This document shows positions 558 to 6,837 of a DNA stretch of 64,000 bases, piece after piece. Each line of letters begins with the position of its first letter. Within the stretch, counting starts at the first letter, position 1. The stretch is from a virus. A model generated the notes under the pieces. That model searched no databases. It was not told the DNA's origin and was given only the letters and a program-made list of their open reading frames with translations. Location of the stretch: positions 32,001 to 96,000 of the IMG/VR virus record IMGVR_UViG_3300005288_000001. One strand, given 5' to 3'. The translations under genes and the position numbers were made by a program.

Positions 558-634
558 TGGTGGCCCGTGGGGGATTCGAACCCCCGACATTCGGTTTTGA
601 AGACCGCCGCTCTAACCAACTGAGCTAACGGGCC
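558..634 (-). tRNA. tRNA with UCA anticodon (opal suppressor, Trp-like anticodon arm)
   Basis: Cloverleaf: acceptor GGCCCGT/ACGGGCC-A-CCA, anticodon loop CTTCAAA, T-arm GGGGG-TTCGAAT-CCCCC. No Sec-type long arm. Confidence 0.9.
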
Positions 635-2653: not shown

Positions 2654-2960
2654 AATTCCCTGGTACGCAGCGAACGTACAAACTCACCGTTATCTCGGTG
2701 TGTTGCATCATAGGGCGGGCCCATACAACTTCAGGGTAAAACTAACACTGTATACGATACACTTCTCGACCGTACTTCTTTCGAACGAACCAGTTGGCCC
2801 TTCTTCAGCATGTACCGCAGATCGCGATCGTATTTCAGCAATGGGCAATACTTTCGATTGACCATTATGTAATTGCCTGGAGTTGACGCAAGGTACTCGA
2901 GAATCTTTTTACGACGCTCGGCACCCTGTGGCCAGTTCCAGATCAAGTCTGTGTAATTAA

Positions 2961-3036
2961 TGGTGCGGGCTACAGGGTTCGAACCTGCGACATCCGCGTT
3001 GGCAACGCGGTGCTCTACCAACTGAGCTAAGCACGC
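2961..3036 (-). tRNA. tRNA-Gly(GCC)
   Basis: Loop TTGCCAA, canonical D and T arms, CCA end. Confidence 0.9.
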
Positions 3037-3150
3037 CTTTTTCTTACCACCACTTCGAGATAAAGTGGTACGCGACATAAGCAATCCCACCCCAAAAGGC
3101 GAGGACTAGAATGAAATAAATGCCAAACAAGGCAGATACTGCCTTCATCA

Positions 3151-3381
3151 TTACTTCTTGGCGGACTTACCACCACCCAAGCCATTCTGGCGAGGATCGC
3201 CACCCTTCCAACCATCAGGAGGTGGATAGGCGATATAAACACGGGGACGGCCTGAACCAGTACGTGATCCCTTGTTCTTCTTGTCGATTTGTTTCGACTT
3301 CCACGTACCCATAGAAAGGTAACGGGACTTTACGTCTCGGGGGACAGATACTGCCGGCCCTCTTGCTTTCGCCATAATCAA
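3151..3381 (-). CDS. Small basic hypothetical protein
   Basis: ORF between RNA genes with AAGGA upstream; K/R/G-rich. Confidence 0.4.
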   Translation of the reverse strand: MIMAKARGPAVSVPRDVKSRYLSMGTWKSKQIDKKNKGSRTGSGRPRVYIAYPPPDGWKGGDPRQNGLGGGKSAKK

Positions 3382-3407
3382 TCCTTCAGGATGGTTAATA
3401 AAATCAA

Positions 3408-3514
3408 CAGAATCGTTTTTGACATCCCGAGGACTCGAACCTCTGTCATACCCCCAGCGGGCCAGGCACTTGGTTTTGGTAGTGGTAGTGGTTTGTATTG
3501 CTGATACGATTCTA
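3408..3514 (-). ncRNA. Stem/CAGCAA ncRNA #1, containing a T-arm mimic
   Basis: Closing stem TAGAATCGT...ACGATTCTG, ATCAGCAA motif, internal GAGG-TTCGAGT-CCTC hairpin. Confidence 0.6.
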
Positions 3515-3518
3515 AAAT

Positions 3519-3594
3519 TGGTACGCCCCGCAGGTTTCGAACCTGCCTATTCTGGGTCAAAGCCAGATGCCTCCACCGAGTTGGCTTGGAGCGA
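3519..3594 (-). tRNA. tRNA-Gln(TTG)
   Basis: Loop CTTTGAC, T-loop TTCGAAA, CCA end. Confidence 0.85.
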
Positions 3595-3627
3595 ACGAGG
3601 ACTTCTCAAGCTGTCCTTTTTAAACTA

Positions 3628-3682
3628 CAGGTTCCGCTTTTTTCATTTCAATGTGAATTTTTGTATTGCTGAATGGAACCTA
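3628..3682 (-). ncRNA. Stem/CAGCAA ncRNA #2
   Basis: Stem TAGGTTCC...GGAACCTG, ATTCAGCAA motif. Confidence 0.6.
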
Positions 3683-3686
3683 AAAC

Positions 3687-3761
3687 TGGTAGTCGGTGAG
3701 AATTCCGAGATCTCAACTTCCTGGATGTCGACCAGGTACTCTGCCTTTGAGTTAACCGACT
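3687..3761 (-). tRNA. tRNA-Val(GAC), C33 and atypical T-loop
   Basis: CCTGG-TCGACAT-CCAGG, CCA end. Confidence 0.8.
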
Positions 3762-3767
3762 AAAAAC

Positions 3768-3842
3768 TGGTACGCGATGAGAATTTCGAAATCCCGACCT
3801 TCGCCTTGTAAGGGCGTTGCTCTGCCTCTGAGCTAATCGCGC
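3768..3842 (-). tRNA. tRNA-Val(TAC)
   Basis: Loop CTTACAA, CCA end. Confidence 0.9.
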
Positions 3843-3848
3843 ATAAAT

Positions 3849-3923
3849 TGGTAGTCCTAGGCAATTCCGAGATGCCGACCTTGTCCGTATGAAGGACCTG
3901 CTCTGCCGCTGAGCTATAGGACT
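3849..3923 (-). tRNA. tRNA-Met/Ile2(CAT)
   Basis: Loop TTCATAC, T-loop CTCGGAA, CCA end. Confidence 0.8.
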
Positions 3924-3934
3924 AGAATATTCTT

Positions 3935-4009
3935 AGGGTTGACCTATGGGTTACGCTCCCATTTAACCGGCTTCACAGGCCAGGTCCGTACTATATGGAT
4001 CAGGCCAAC
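3935..4009 (-). tRNA. tRNA-His(GTG), no encoded CCA, extended acceptor helix
   Basis: Loop CTGTGAA, G-1:C73 pair; ends CCT and pairs further with the 5' leader. Confidence 0.8.
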
Positions 4010-4019
4010 CCTAAGAACA

Positions 4020-4199
4020 CTATGTATACCAAACGTTGAACTCGTGTCCGCAATTCAGACACTTGTAACGATCAACGTCATCACATTCGTTAATTAACTC
4101 GACGTCTTCATGAAGCCACCATTGTTGGAGTTCGACTACCTTACCGGCAATCTCAATGGGCATTGGGCTTTCTTTTGTACAGCGATGTTCAGTTGTCAT
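4020..4199 (-). CDS. 59-aa zinc-ribbon-like protein (MTTEHRC...YKCLNCGHEF)
   Basis: Translated by hand; TATAAT lies 7 nt upstream of the ATG. Confidence 0.55.
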   Translation of the reverse strand: MTTEHRCTKESPMPIEIAGKVVELQQWWLHEDVELINECDDVDRYKCLNCGHEFNVWYT

Positions 4200-4219
4200 A
4201 CAGTTAATTATACGTTACT

Positions 4220-4309
4220 TGGCGGAAGAAGGAGGTATCGAACCCCATCCGAATTACTCCAGACTGACTGCTTAGCAGGCAGCACGTAACCCTGTTACGA
4301 TCATCTTCC
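4220..4309 (-). tRNA. tRNA-Ser(GCT)
   Basis: Loop CTGCTAA, long variable arm, G73, CCA end. Confidence 0.85.
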
Positions 4310-4314
4310 TAAAT

Positions 4315-4438
4315 TGGTGCCGATGGCCGGATTCGAACCGACGTCTCGTCCTTGAAATGGAGTGTAAAGTATGCTGGACAGAACCTTGTCAGGCTCCGGT
4401 TTGGTACATACGCGTGCTAACCATTACACCACATCGGC
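4315..4438 (-). tRNA. tRNA-like RNA (anticodon TTC) with 49-nt insert in the anticodon stem
   Basis: Acceptor, D and T arms are intact. Deleting 4362-4410 gives a 75-nt cloverleaf with CGTCC-ATTTCAA-GGACG. Confidence 0.75.
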
Positions 4439-4445
4439 ATTAAAC

Positions 4446-4521
4446 TGGCGGTTCTAGGGGGTAACGCTCCCCACTCTTCTGCAGTGACAGTGCAGTATGC
4501 ATCTATGAACATCTTAGAACC
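4446..4521 (-). tRNA. tRNA-Asp(GTC)
   Basis: CTGCA-CTGTCAC-TGCAG, T-loop AGCGTTA, GCCA end. Confidence 0.85.
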
Positions 4522-4527
4522 TAAACT

Positions 4528-4601
4528 TGGTACCCAGTGAAAGTAACGCTCTTTCGTTCTCGCCTTATCAAGACGCCGTTCTACTTTTGAACTAACCGGG
4601 C
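4528..4601 (-). tRNA. tRNA-Ile(GAT)
   Basis: Loop TTGATAA, T-loop AGCGTTA, CCA end. Confidence 0.85.
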
Positions 4602-4604
4602 AAA

Positions 4605-4675
4605 TGGTGGGGAGGCAGATCATATAACCATAGCCTCATCTTTTATCGCCCTTCTCGACCAGGGGCGACCTCCCC
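4605..4675 (-). ncRNA. CCA-ended non-cloverleaf mini-tRNA
   Basis: Acceptor helix GGGGAGG/CCTCCCC-A-CCA; internal TCGCCC/GGGCGA hairpin. Confidence 0.6.
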
Positions 4676-4684
4676 ATAAAAACT

Positions 4685-4761
4685 TGGCGGGCCAGAGTGG
4701 ACTCGAACCACTAACATTCGGTTTTGGAGACCGACGTTCTGCCAATTGGAACTACTGACCC
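4685..4761 (-). tRNA. tRNA-Trp(CCA)
   Basis: Loop CTCCAAA, canonical arms. Confidence 0.92.
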
Positions 4762-4770
4762 ATAAAACAA

Positions 4771-4826
4771 CAGGATGCTTATTTTTCAATTAAAAGTTGA
4801 ATTTTAAGATTGCTGAACGCATCCTA
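4771..4826 (-). ncRNA. Stem/CAGCAA ncRNA #3, with tRNA-Lys anticodon-loop mimic
   Basis: Stem TAGGATGC...GCATCCTG, TTCAGCAA, internal TTCAA-CTTTTAA-TTGAA hairpin. Confidence 0.65.
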
Positions 4827-4833
4827 GATACTA

Positions 4834-4912
4834 CAGAGAAGTAATAAGATTTAGGCTCTTATCGTTGCCCGCCTTTCGGCATCCAGATTAATGGTTTGCT
4901 GAATCTTCTCTA
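4834..4912 (-). ncRNA. Stem/CAGCAA ncRNA #4
   Basis: Stem TAGAGAAG...CTTCTCTG, TTCAGCAA, hairpins GCC-GAAA-GGC and ATAAGA-GCCTAAA-TCTTAT. Confidence 0.6.
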
Positions 4913-4917
4913 AAAAC

Positions 4918-4992
4918 TGGAGAGGCAAGTAGGTATCGCGCCTACCTTTACAGGGTTGCAATCTGTCACACATCTGTCTATGTCATTGCCTC
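4918..4992 (-). tRNA. tRNA-Cys(GCA)
   Basis: Loop TTGCAAC, U73, CCA end. Confidence 0.8.
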
Positions 4993-4997
4993 ATATT

Positions 4998-5069
4998 TGG
5001 AGCGGGCTACAGGGTTCGAACCTGCATCTTTCAGCTTGGAAGGCTAAACGTATTCCACAAACAACCCGC
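4998..5069 (-). tRNA. tRNA-Gly(TCC), reduced D-arm
   Basis: Loop CTTCCAA, U73, CCA end. Confidence 0.8.
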
Positions 5070-5078
5070 ATAAAAACT

Positions 5079-5153
5079 TGGTAGGCCCAGACGGTATCGA
5101 ACTGTCTTCTTCCGGTTAAGAGCCGGGTGCATCACCATTAATGCTTTGAACCT
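5079..5153 (-). tRNA. tRNA-Lys(CTT)
   Basis: Loop CTCTTAA, CCA end. Confidence 0.85.
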
Positions 5154-5155
5154 AT

Positions 5156-5227
5156 TGGTGCACTGGTGGCCCTGTTCATTAGTGGGTACGATAAGACCCA
5201 TCCTTTTACTTAGAACACTCACAATGC
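5156..5227 (-). ncRNA. CCA-ended non-cloverleaf mini-tRNA
   Basis: GCATTG/CAGTGC-A-CCA; inner helices TGTTC/GAACA and TGGGT-CTTATCGT-ACCCA. Confidence 0.5.
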
Positions 5228-5233
5228 GTAAAT

Positions 5234-5311
5234 TGGTGGAGGATATCGGCATCGAACCGATCTGTATCCTACGTGCAAGGCAGGTGTCCACCCCAAGCAG
5301 ACCCATCCCCC
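5234..5311 (-). tRNA. tRNA-Ala(TGC)
   Basis: Loop CTTGCAC, G3:U70, CCA end. Confidence 0.9.
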
Positions 5312-5317
5312 AATATT

Positions 5318-5373
5318 TGGTGATCTCGACGCGCTTACCCATGCATGGTTTCAGCGGCCACACTTTCGTGATC
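5318..5373 (-). ncRNA. CCA-ended mini-tRNA
   Basis: GATCACG/CGAGATC-A-CCA with one mismatch; spaced like the neighbouring tRNA genes. Confidence 0.45.
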
Positions 5374-5381
5374 AGTAACTT

Positions 5382-5459
5382 TGGTGCCCCCGGACGGACT
5401 CGAACCGCCAACCCTCTGCTTACAAGGCAGTCGCTCTACCAGTTAAGAGCTACAGGGGC
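5382..5459 (-). tRNA. tRNA-Thr(TGT)
   Basis: Loop CTTGTAA, canonical arms. Confidence 0.9.
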
Positions 5460-5468
5460 AAAATACAA

Positions 5469-5616
5469 CAGAGTGTCAGGAGCGTTTCGGCCGCGATTCC
5501 CAGGTGCCTGTACTACGATTTGGCAGGTAGCCTTCCTATCTGGCCTTGGAGGGGTTTGATGCCCTCTTACTTCACCAGCATTGCGATTTTATATATTTGT
5601 TGCAGAACACACTCTA
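5469..5616 (-). ncRNA. Stem/CTGCAA ncRNA #5 (long)
   Basis: Stem TAGAGTGT...ACACTCTG, TTCTGCAA motif, about 125-nt interior. Confidence 0.6.
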
Positions 5617-5622
5617 ATAACT

Positions 5623-5696
5623 TGGTCAGGGTGGTAGGTAACGCTCCTACGCTCCGAAGTTCCAAACCTCAGCGACTACTATTATCATACACCCAG
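5623..5696 (-). tRNA. tRNA-Pro(TGG) copy 1, atypical T-loop
   Basis: Loop TTTGGAA, T-loop AGCGTTA. Confidence 0.8.
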
Positions 5697-5700
5697 AAAT

Positions 5701-5742
5701 TGGTGTCGGGGGTTTCCAGATCATACTGGCAGCTATCCCGAC
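5701..5742 (-). ncRNA. 42-nt CCA-ended minihelix
   Basis: GTCGGG/CCCGAC-A-CCA plus CCAG-TATGAT-CTGG hairpin. Confidence 0.55.
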
Positions 5743-5763
5743 GGCTGTCCCATCCCGGAGATT

Positions 5764-5810
5764 TGGTGGAGTGGCCCAGAATTTAGTGAGCTCTGGTATT
5801 CAACCACTCC
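5764..5810 (-). ncRNA. 47-nt CCA-ended minihelix
   Basis: GGAGTGG/CCACTCC-A-CCA plus CCAGA/TCTGG hairpin. Confidence 0.6.
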
Positions 5811-5814
5811 GTAT

Positions 5815-5868
5815 TGGTGGGGAGGACCGCAACAAAGCGGTTGAGGCAACTAATTGAAGCTACTCCCC
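5815..5868 (-). ncRNA. 54-nt CCA-ended minihelix
   Basis: GGGGAG/CTCCCC-A-CCA plus ACCGC-TTTGTT-GCGGT hairpin at the T-arm position. Confidence 0.6.
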
Positions 5869-5873
5869 GAAAC

Positions 5874-5950
5874 TGGTCCGAGTACAAGGATTCGAACCTT
5901 GGACCCCCGCGTCCCAAACGCGGTGCGCTACCGGGCTGCGCTACACTCGG
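5874..5950 (-). tRNA. tRNA-Pro(TGG) copy 2
   Basis: CCGCG-TTTGGGA-CGCGG, canonical arms. Confidence 0.92.
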
Positions 5951-5952
5951 AT

Positions 5953-6026
5953 TGGCCCCTTATCATGGCAACGAACCACGGACCCCCGTCTTAAATAAAC
6001 GGTACTCTACACTGAGCTAATAAGGG
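5953..6026 (-). tRNA. tRNA-Lys(TTT)-like variant with A33 and G73
   Basis: CCGTT-TATTTAA-GACGG; acceptor CCCTTAT/ATAAGGG. Confidence 0.6.
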
Positions 6027-6036
6027 ATACATAACA

Positions 6037-6116
6037 TGGCGGCCGGGGGAGGATTCGAACCATCCGTTACAACGCGGATTAGGCGTAGTGTCCTGGAGCC
6101 GCTAGACGACCCGGCC
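6037..6116 (-). tRNA. Aberrant tRNA, Glu-like D-arm, loop CTAATCC (anticodon AAT?)
   Basis: GGCCGGG/CCCGGCC-G-CCA; bulged T-stem; identity undetermined. Confidence 0.55.
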
Positions 6117-6120
6117 ATGT

Positions 6121-6200
6121 TGGTTGCGCAGGGTGGATTCGCACCACCGATCTCGAGGGTTATGAGCCCTGCGGGGACGGCTAAACTCCCCTACCGCGCC
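6121..6200 (-). tRNA. Initiator-like tRNA-fMet(CAT)
   Basis: GGG-CTCATAA-CCC (three G:C pairs); unpaired 1:72. Confidence 0.8.
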
Positions 6201-6496: not shown

Positions 6497-6571
6497 TGGT
6501 ATCCTGTATGGGTTACGCTCCCATCTATGCCGGTTGAAAGCCGGGTGACCACTCTAGCAGTCGCACAGGAT
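6497..6571 (-). tRNA. tRNA-Glu(TTC), atypical T-loop
   Basis: Loop CTTTCAA, T-loop AGCGTAA. Confidence 0.8.
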
Positions 6572-6582
6572 GTAAATACATT

Positions 6583-6661
6583 TGGCTCCACACACTGGAA
6601 TCGAACCAGTCTAATCATTGATTAACAGTCAAGTCCTTGCACCTTGCTTGGATTCTGTGGA
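6583..6661 (-). tRNA. tRNA-Asn(GTT)
   Basis: Loop CTGTTAA, GCCA end. Confidence 0.85.
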
Positions 6662-6669
6662 ACATAATA

Positions 6670-6747
6670 TGGTGGGGCAGGGTGGACTTGAACCACCGAC
6701 TCACCGGTGCAAAACCCGGCCGCTCTAATTCACTGAGCTACTACCCC
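6670..6747 (-). tRNA. tRNA with 8-nt anticodon loop (GTTTTGCA), identity undetermined
   Basis: Canonical acceptor, D and T arms; GCCGG-GTTTTGCA-CCGGT. Confidence 0.7.
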
Positions 6748-6754
6748 GAAAATT

Positions 6755-6837
6755 TGGTGGACGCCGTAGGTAACGCTCCTACTCAGTCGTAACGGGTGCT
6801 TTACAGGCACTTAGGCTCTCTTAGGCCCAGGACGTCC
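6755..6837 (-). tRNA. tRNA-Tyr(GTA)
   Basis: Loop CTGTAAA, extended variable region, T-loop AGCGTTA. Confidence 0.8.

Follow-up and report, generated by a model that had tools for sequence, protein, structure and literature searches.

Small RNAs that are not transfer RNAs (tRNAs) have been known for about fifty years from the tRNA cluster of bacteriophage T4. Two of them, the stable RNAs species 1 and 2 (genes rnaC and rnaD), are made from the same precursor transcript as the T4 tRNAs (PMC2330249). We analyzed a stretch of 64,000 nucleotides (nt), hereafter the window, which corresponds to bases 32001-96000 of the IMG/VR virus record IMGVR_UViG_3300005288_000001. This 172.5-kilobase (kb) record has direct terminal repeats and its source genome is described as a T4-like phage. 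A tRNA array of roughly 45 genes runs on the minus strand of the window, from ~1815 to ~6840, and seven short CCA-ended units, here named A to G, are interspersed among these genes. Our results suggest that three of them (A, E and F) are former tRNA genes that have kept the top half of the molecule, i.e., an acceptor helix, usually seated on a T-type hairpin, followed by a discriminator A and an encoded CCA. Such units cannot decode.

The genes rnaC and rnaD of T4 represent the nearest natural precedent: like the units of the window, they are small non-tRNA RNA genes located in a tRNA cluster and on the tRNA strand. In the T4 record, a canonical T arm of rnaC adjoins its acceptor-like 3' terminus, and the DNA following rnaD reads ..CACCA. 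The T4 genes are longer, however (119-139 nt versus 40-72 nt for the units), and lack a clean acceptor of 7 base pairs (bp), with 5/7 pairs in rnaC by our own reading. A blastn search against 50,697 phage records returned no match for units A and B and only tRNA matches for the region 4300-6200, and therefore no homology to rnaC or rnaD.

The same architecture as that of the units (a 7-bp acceptor on a short hairpin, a discriminator and CCA) is found in the synthetic acceptor-T-arm minihelices and microhelices that serve as model substrates of synthetases, RNase P, the CCA-adding enzyme, FaRel2 and Cas12a3. These are laboratory constructs, whereas the units are encoded in a genome and carry a bulge of 5-21 nt at the position of the former D and anticodon arms. 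Armless mitochondrial tRNAs of enoplean nematodes (~42-50 nt) have no D or T arms, keep the acceptor stem and the anticodon arm, and still decode. The units are similar to them in length and in their acceptor stem but have their hairpin in T-arm position instead; the loops are 4, 6, 7 and 11 nt long and no triplet is conserved between orthologues. Finally, the MALAT1 mascRNA, the tRNA-like RNAs of murine gammaherpesvirus 68 and the tRNA-like domain of bacterial Y RNA are processed by tRNA enzymes and end in CCA without decoding. RNAs of this type keep a cloverleaf-like or L-shaped fold and mostly receive their CCA after transcription, in contrast to the encoded CCA of the units, and the Rfam mascRNA model yielded only a chance-level match, on a real tRNA. 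In the literature that we searched, whose coverage is incomplete, we found no description of genome-encoded CCA-ended minihelices in phages.

The initial annotation of this stretch had proposed a family of seven such units spaced like tRNA genes and invisible to tRNA scanners. All seven were recovered on the minus strand, at 4605-4675 (A), 5156-5227 (B), 5318-5373 (C), 5701-5742 (D), 5764-5810 (E), 5815-5868 (F) and 2661-2708 (G), each with a terminal helix followed by A and CCA. This helix is 7/7 Watson-Crick paired in A and E, 6/7 in F, C and D, and 6/7 including one G-U pair in B and G. The spacing is indeed that of real tRNA genes, since the six units between 4605 and 5868 lie 2-9 nt from their neighbor wherever they abut one, and the scanners were indeed silent: ARAGORN made no call at any of the seven units and Rfam gave no match there at E ≤ 10. 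The units possess the acceptor stem, discriminator and CCA of the Rfam tRNA model RF00005 (gathering score of 29 bits) and lack its cloverleaf. Our own cloverleaf check, which ignores the sequence of the T-loop, was passed by 30 neighboring units and failed by 7/7 of the short ones. The accompanying statement that no D, T or anticodon consensus can be recognized holds only in part: unit A keeps a D-arm-like hairpin, and unit F has a D-arm-like segment as well as a T-type hairpin.

We then estimated how frequently such helices are expected by chance, using a scan for 7-bp helices followed by A and CCA (36-74 nt) with the window outside the array as background. Perfect helices were found at 0.0088 per kb-strand outside the array, which leads to an expectation of ~0.02 in the 2.38 kb of array gaps where two are seen, an enrichment of about 100-fold. 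Helices of the 6/7 class arise by chance at 0.88 per kb-strand, with 2.1 expected and seven seen in the gaps. Because this class is so frequent, the helix alone says little for units B, C, D, F and G, for which only the tiling of the array and the comparison with relatives count. Folding energies relative to dinucleotide shuffles were clearly low for D (z = -3.3), E (-3.3) and F (-3.5) and unremarkable for A (-1.3), C (-1.1), G (-1.8) and B (-0.3). The segment TATGATCTG, reported to be shared by the units at 4605 and 5701, is real. Its sharing is nevertheless near the chance level over all pairs of units (0.1-0.2 by our own estimate), and we rejected it as a family signature. Scans for terminator and promoter consensus sequences on the array strand found nothing above the shuffled expectation, and a terminator or promoter role for the units was dropped.

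When the products of the flanking AAA ATPase and HAD-family genes were used as protein queries, metagenome assemblies yielded four related phages, each of which has a syntenic array. Their loci are L080, whose ATPase is 92% identical to that of the window, L081/L086/L087 (86%), and the more distant L089 and L090. The comparison thus involves five phages (the window and four relatives) and few independent events. No close relative was found in public phage records or in IMG/VR. The ATPase retrieved only ~50% identical phages without such arrays from IMG/VR, and an open reading frame (ORF) embedded in the array retrieved no relatives.

Unit A (71 nt; 4605-4675, minus strand) occupies the slot between tRNA-Trp and tRNA-Ile(GAT) with the acceptor GGGGAGG/CCTCCCC (7/7), A and CCA. 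In the window it retains the D-arm-like hairpin GCCC..GGGC and has neither an anticodon arm nor a T arm. In L080, the same slot contains a 40-nt minihelix (4852-4891) with the acceptor GGGGAAG/CTTCCCC, so that pair 6 has changed from G-C to A-U on both sides. This 40-nt cassette is also present in L090 (3776-3815), with the acceptor of the window and after tRNA-Pro, i.e., in another slot than in L080. The two copies are identical at 38/40 positions (95%): the two differences form the compensatory pair and all 26 inner bases are the same. Elsewhere, L080 and L090 are 74% identical in coding DNA and 59-100% identical in their tRNAs. With its 7-bp and 5-bp helices and a 7-nt loop, the 40-nt form corresponds to a textbook minihelix. 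The interior of unit A in the window has no relative in phage records or in the collected loci, and in L081/L086 the slot is empty and the tRNAs simply abut.

Unit E (47 nt; 5764-5810, minus strand) is composed of the acceptor GGAGTGG/CCACTCC (7/7), the linker TTGAATA, the hairpin CCAGA..TCTGG, a G, A and CCA. The slot is occupied in L080 by a unit of 42 nt (3661-3702) that shares the GAATA linker and has another hairpin and the acceptor GGGGAAC/GTTCCCC. Between these two units, 4/7 acceptor pairs are altered on both sides and all of them are still paired. Unit E is not present in L081/L086 or L089, and L090 has an A-type cassette in its slot. The units of the window and of L080 may be different cassettes occupying one slot rather than diverged orthologues. 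Unit F (54 nt; 5815-5868, minus strand) presents the acceptor GGGGAG/CTCCCC (6 bp and a U.C mismatch), a 5' D-arm-like segment (TAGCTTCAATTAGTTGCC), the T-type hairpin ACCGC-TTTGTT-GCGGT, A and CCA, and is a tRNA lacking its anticodon arm. It is found in four phages, with orthologues in L080 (3601-3654), L086 (7959-8009) and L089 (7568-7630). Pair 3 is G-C in the window and A-U in L080 and L086; in L089, a G inserted in the 5' strand is paired with a T inserted opposite to it, bringing the helix to 7/7. All orthologues retain the T-type hairpin, although its length varies.

Simulations of random substitution gave a probability of 0.008 for the single compensatory pair of A and ~0.012 for that of F (with three random substitutions), and the joint chance of both events is ~1e-4. 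The initial annotation had taken the maintenance of pairing in stems of differing sequence as a sign of structural selection. The covariation observed in the relatives supports this view for A, E and F and does not extend to C, D, B or G. From these alignments, the acceptor helix and the ACCA end of A, E and F are under structural or purifying selection. Because the relatives keep acceptor pairing through compensatory changes, these three units are not simply decayed pseudogenes, whose substitutions would ignore pairing.

The position of the inner hairpin points to the origin of these units, which the initial annotation had not addressed: derivation from tRNA genes through the loss of internal arms. 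The distance between this hairpin and the acceptor strands of the well-supported units is 0-1 nt on the 3' side and 5-21 nt on the 5' side. Since this asymmetry is the geometry of a T arm, the units are best described as tRNAs lacking the D arm, the anticodon arm or both. The hairpin of F directly abuts the 3' acceptor strand, and that of E is separated from it by 1 nt, or by none if a U.G pair is counted. Unit F, unit E and the 40-nt form of A in L080 and L090 all have the layout of an acceptor-T-arm minihelix; no hairpin in T-arm position is evident in A, B, C or G of the window.

Intermediate forms were observed in the slot between tRNA-Tyr and tRNA-Asn. In the window, this slot contains unit X (6670-6747, minus strand), outside the coordinates of the initial annotation, which is tRNA-shaped, of full size (78 nt) and called 'tRNA-???' by ARAGORN, with an 8-nt anticodon loop and the acceptor GGGGTAG/CTGCCCC followed by A and CCA. 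The series continues in the relatives: the member in L090 is 76 nt long and has another 8-nt loop, that in L086 measures 68 nt, and that in L089 is reduced to 53 nt and consists of an acceptor, a D arm and a T arm without an anticodon arm. All acceptors of the series are 7/7 paired, with three covarying pairs. The mini units thus form the lower size end of a broader set of tRNA-shaped units that do not decode in this clade. The slot itself, occupied at 6670-6747 in the window, 2971-3046 in L090, 6954-7028 and 6878-6947 in L086, and 6680-6748 in L089, is a hot spot of non-decoding tRNA-shaped units, which include 8-nt anticodon loops of differing sequence and a loop with A at position 33. A second family in this slot, Y, presents the acceptors CCCGAGT/CCTGACG, the discriminator G and three covarying acceptor pairs.

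Our leading reading, which we hold tentatively, is that these former tRNA genes act as non-decoding mimics of the tRNA end, or decoys. The units would be transcribed as part of the long precursor of the tRNAs; cleavage by RNase P would generate their 5' ends, and their 3' ends would be trimmed to the CCA like those of their neighbors. Processing would then free RNAs of 40-72 nt presenting a tRNA-like acceptor end, and these could compete as substrates, or act as decoys, for host proteins recognizing the acceptor stem and the CCA tail, such as defense enzymes directed at this tail. The CCA-cleaving Cas12a3 (PMC12851939) and the CCA-pyrophosphorylating toxin FaRel2 (PMC11245113) accept as substrates hairpins or minihelices that carry an acceptor stem and CCA. 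The evidence that we count in favor of mimicry is the tiling of the array, the compensatory changes, the T-arm geometry, the truncation series, the constancy of the 40-nt A cassette and the dispensability of the units for decoding. Indeed, full-size tRNAs cover all 20 amino acids when the calls of ARAGORN, Rfam and our cloverleaf check are combined with tRNA-His and tRNA-Asn read by eye, and the short units are therefore dispensable for the decoding set. A more specific version of this reading, which we regard as rather unlikely, is that the changing set of encoded tRNA top halves constitutes a counter-defense: the minihelices would soak up CCA-cleaving nucleases and CCA-pyrophosphorylating or CCA-extending toxins, and the rapid swapping of acceptors among relatives would reflect an arms race over the choice of the host tRNA end to mimic.

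Several observations weigh against mimicry. The units turn over among the phages: A and E are missing in L081/L086, the window alone has B, and L090 has a truncated C. In E, as in the window copy of A, the interior has been replaced rather than conserved, and replaced interiors fit dispensable remnants as well as they fit an arms race. Unit A of the window folds weakly, as indicated by its z score. We found no defense target, partner protein or phage-encoded CCA-adding enzyme; no Pfam match to a CCA-adding enzyme or PTH2 was detected in the phage, and the ORFs within and beside the array are uninformative about partners. As in T4, an Rnl1-type RNA ligase is encoded. Finally, a survey of 31 tRNA arrays from unrelated phages gave 11 units of this type on the array strand and 19 on the opposite one, hence no excess on the array strand, so the case for them applies to the present clade only.

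A close rival of the decoy reading, and one that we consider quite possible, is that the units are marks for processing. The 3' end of a tRNA in the array would be freed by the RNase P cut at the 5' end of the next unit, and a remnant would consequently have to remain cleavable or vanish. Disused tRNA remnants would then be tolerated only when fully deleted or when they still resemble an RNase P substrate, with an acceptor/T-type helix and RCCA, and selection would act on cleavability without the minihelices having a role of their own. The separation of polycistronic tRNA transcripts by RNase P is known in Escherichia coli, where two reports present it as the essential role of the enzyme (PMC2190699, PMC7049720). 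The spacers of just 2-9 nt are consistent with this explanation, as are the differences in presence and absence among relatives, with whole units deleted cleanly, the interiors that vary freely and with indels while the helix is retained, and the truncation series, which indicates stepwise loss. In contrast, none of the 26 inner bases of the 40-nt A cassette differs between two phages whose coding DNA is 74% identical and which carry the cassette in different slots. This constancy argues against cleavability as the sole constraint because recognition by RNase P should not fix the sequence of a loop or linker. Moreover, no spacer module seems to be needed, since tRNAs directly abut where units are missing, and each of the five phages retains several units despite their turnover.

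Both explanations give these units a broader interest. They constitute a simpler and more readable case than the T4 RNAs, with an acceptor end only, visible selection and a stepwise link to tRNA genes. If they are made and stable, they would be natural counterparts of the minihelices with which biochemists probe synthetases, RNase P and tRNA-directed toxins, as well as obvious decoy candidates against the recently described defenses that cut or modify tRNA tails. If they are mere cutting marks, they would show that packed tRNA arrays constrain the decay of their genes. Under either explanation, annotations of phage tRNA arrays are incomplete because standard tRNA finders miss these units.

It is improbable that the set as a whole represents neutral decay or chance, i.e., dying tRNA pseudogenes or random helices whose structure is not selected. 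This explanation is excluded for A, E and F: the acceptors of A, E, F, X and Y stay 6-7/7 paired despite many two-sided changes, and the joint probability of the two compensatory events and the enrichment of perfect helices in the array gaps also speak against it. It is, however, the likeliest account of B and G, and the uniform family of seven that was originally proposed is not supported. Unit B (72 nt; 5156-5227, minus strand) lies between tRNA-Ala and tRNA-Lys(CTT), with the acceptor GCATTGT/CCAGTGC (6/7 with one G-U), A, CCA and the inner hairpin TGGGT-(8 nt)-ACCCA. This unit lacks a stable fold, nothing resembling it was found among phage records or the collected loci, and L080 and L081 pass directly from tRNA-Ala to tRNA-Lys. 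It is probably a degenerate tRNA-like unit. The insertion that carries it (5154-5233, minus strand) has the repeat CACCAAT at both ends, and because this repeat bounds the unit on both sides, it suggests that units are gained and lost by recombination between the CCA-plus-spacer ends of neighboring genes. Unit G (48 nt; 2661-2708, minus strand) has a weak helix, ATGCAAC/GCTGCGT, in which one position is mismatched and another is a G-U pair; A and CCA follow. Its helix belongs to the class that chance yields at 0.88 per kb-strand, and its minimum-energy fold does not use the proposed acceptor helix. It is near-identical in L080 and wholly missing in L081 and L084.

Unit C (56 nt; 5318-5373, minus strand) is located between tRNA-Thr and tRNA-Ala and presents the acceptor GATCACG/CGAGATC with an A.A mismatch, A and CCA. 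Its sequence is identical in L080, and L081/L086 share its first 19 and last 16 nt around a replaced inner hairpin. L090 retains just the 5' part, the 3' two-thirds with the CCA being lost. Because the helix never varies, it provides no evidence of covariation and is uninformative with regard to neutral decay; unit C is nevertheless probably among the former tRNA genes. Unit D loses its CCA or its helix in the relatives, as expected under neutrality. In sum, B, D and G are not established members of the minihelix set.

The weakest explanation, which we consider very improbable, is that the minihelices are charged by a host synthetase reading the acceptor end and act as non-ribosomal amino-acid donors or sensors of charging: a discriminator A and a GGGG-type acceptor are indeed common to A, F, X and E as it occurs in L080, and F of L089 combines A73 with G3.U70, the identity pair for alanine, whose synthetase (AlaRS) charges minihelices, but this pair occurs in that orthologue only, the units of the window have G3-C70 or A3-U70, which AlaRS rejects by established identity rules, no other acceptor-only identity set fits, and no aminoacyl-tRNA-dependent transferase is found among the ORFs in or adjoining the array.

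Unit D was first drawn at 5701-5742 (minus strand) with the helix GTCGGG/CCCGAC, A and CCA, and the relatives place it in a larger conserved element (5701-5763, minus strand). This element starts with the 17-mer AATCTCCGGGATGGGAC, which is invariant in 5/5 phages (the window, L080, L086, L089 and L090). Next comes a hairpin with a covarying apical stem (CAGC/GCTG, CGGC/GCCG and CAGT/ACTG), and the supposed 5' acceptor strand of unit D lies within the loop of this stem. The terminal helix of D is not retained in L080, L089 or L090, its CCA is lost in L081/L086 (GACAACGT), and we rejected D as a conserved minihelix or pseudoknot on these grounds. The region 5701-5763 is a different object from the minihelices, namely a conserved hairpin element. 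It is always located just 5' of the tRNA at 5623-5696, which has an odd T-loop and is 100% identical in the five phages.

We extended the search to exact matches of selected segments. The 17-mer AATCTCCGGGATGGGAC had no match in viral contigs, and a conserved tRNA 23-mer had none in metagenome contigs. A 17-mer from an odd T-arm was found at 70 viral loci, several of them phage tRNA arrays, none of which could be aligned to the mini units. The loop of the 40-nt A cassette gave no viral match and 26 metagenome matches, which we treated as chance since 0/26 had an acceptor or CCA context. Separately, a 50-nt unit of the form TTGATGT..A[T/C]ATCAA followed by T and CCA was observed in three unrelated viral contigs with tRNA arrays: L013 (1068-1117), L017 (3006-3055) and L073 (1904-1953). 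The single change in its helix keeps the pairing (U-A to U.G).

The array also contains full-size tRNAs that standard tools overlook. The calls of ARAGORN amount to 21 tRNAs for the window and 23 for the whole genome, Rfam added five beyond the ARAGORN set, and the cloverleaf check recovered additional full-size tRNAs with the odd T-loops AGCGTTA, CTCGGAA and CGCGATA that were missed by both programs. Those with T-loops AGCGTTA/AGCGTAA or CTCGGAA have the anticodons Tyr (6755-6837), Glu (6497-6571), Pro (5623-5696), Asp (4446-4521), CAT (3849-3923) and GAC (3687-3761), all on the minus strand. A tRNA-Asn (6583-6661) and a tRNA-His-like gene (3930-4012) were read by eye on the same strand. By this reading, the tRNA-His-like gene encodes G-1 opposite C73, its leader and trailer lengthen the acceptor to a helix of ~15 bp, and the DNA after the discriminator is CCT, not CCA.

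A suppressor-type tRNA adjoins the AAA ATPase gene in the window (558-634, minus strand), L080 (8829-8905), L084 (2405-2481) and L081 (11124-11200). In the window and L081 its anticodon is TCA, which reads UGA, and in L080 and L084 it is CTA, which reads UAG; the stop codon that it would suppress thus switches among close relatives. Finally, the array includes AT-rich, stem-enclosed cassettes with a common (T)TCAGCAA motif at 3400-3520, 3624-3690, 4764-4912 and 5462-5622 (minus strand). Two of these present sub-threshold Rfam matches to Dictyostelium Class I RNA (30.9 and 28.4 bits for a cut-off of 41.5), and the cassettes are kept in L080, L081 and L090.

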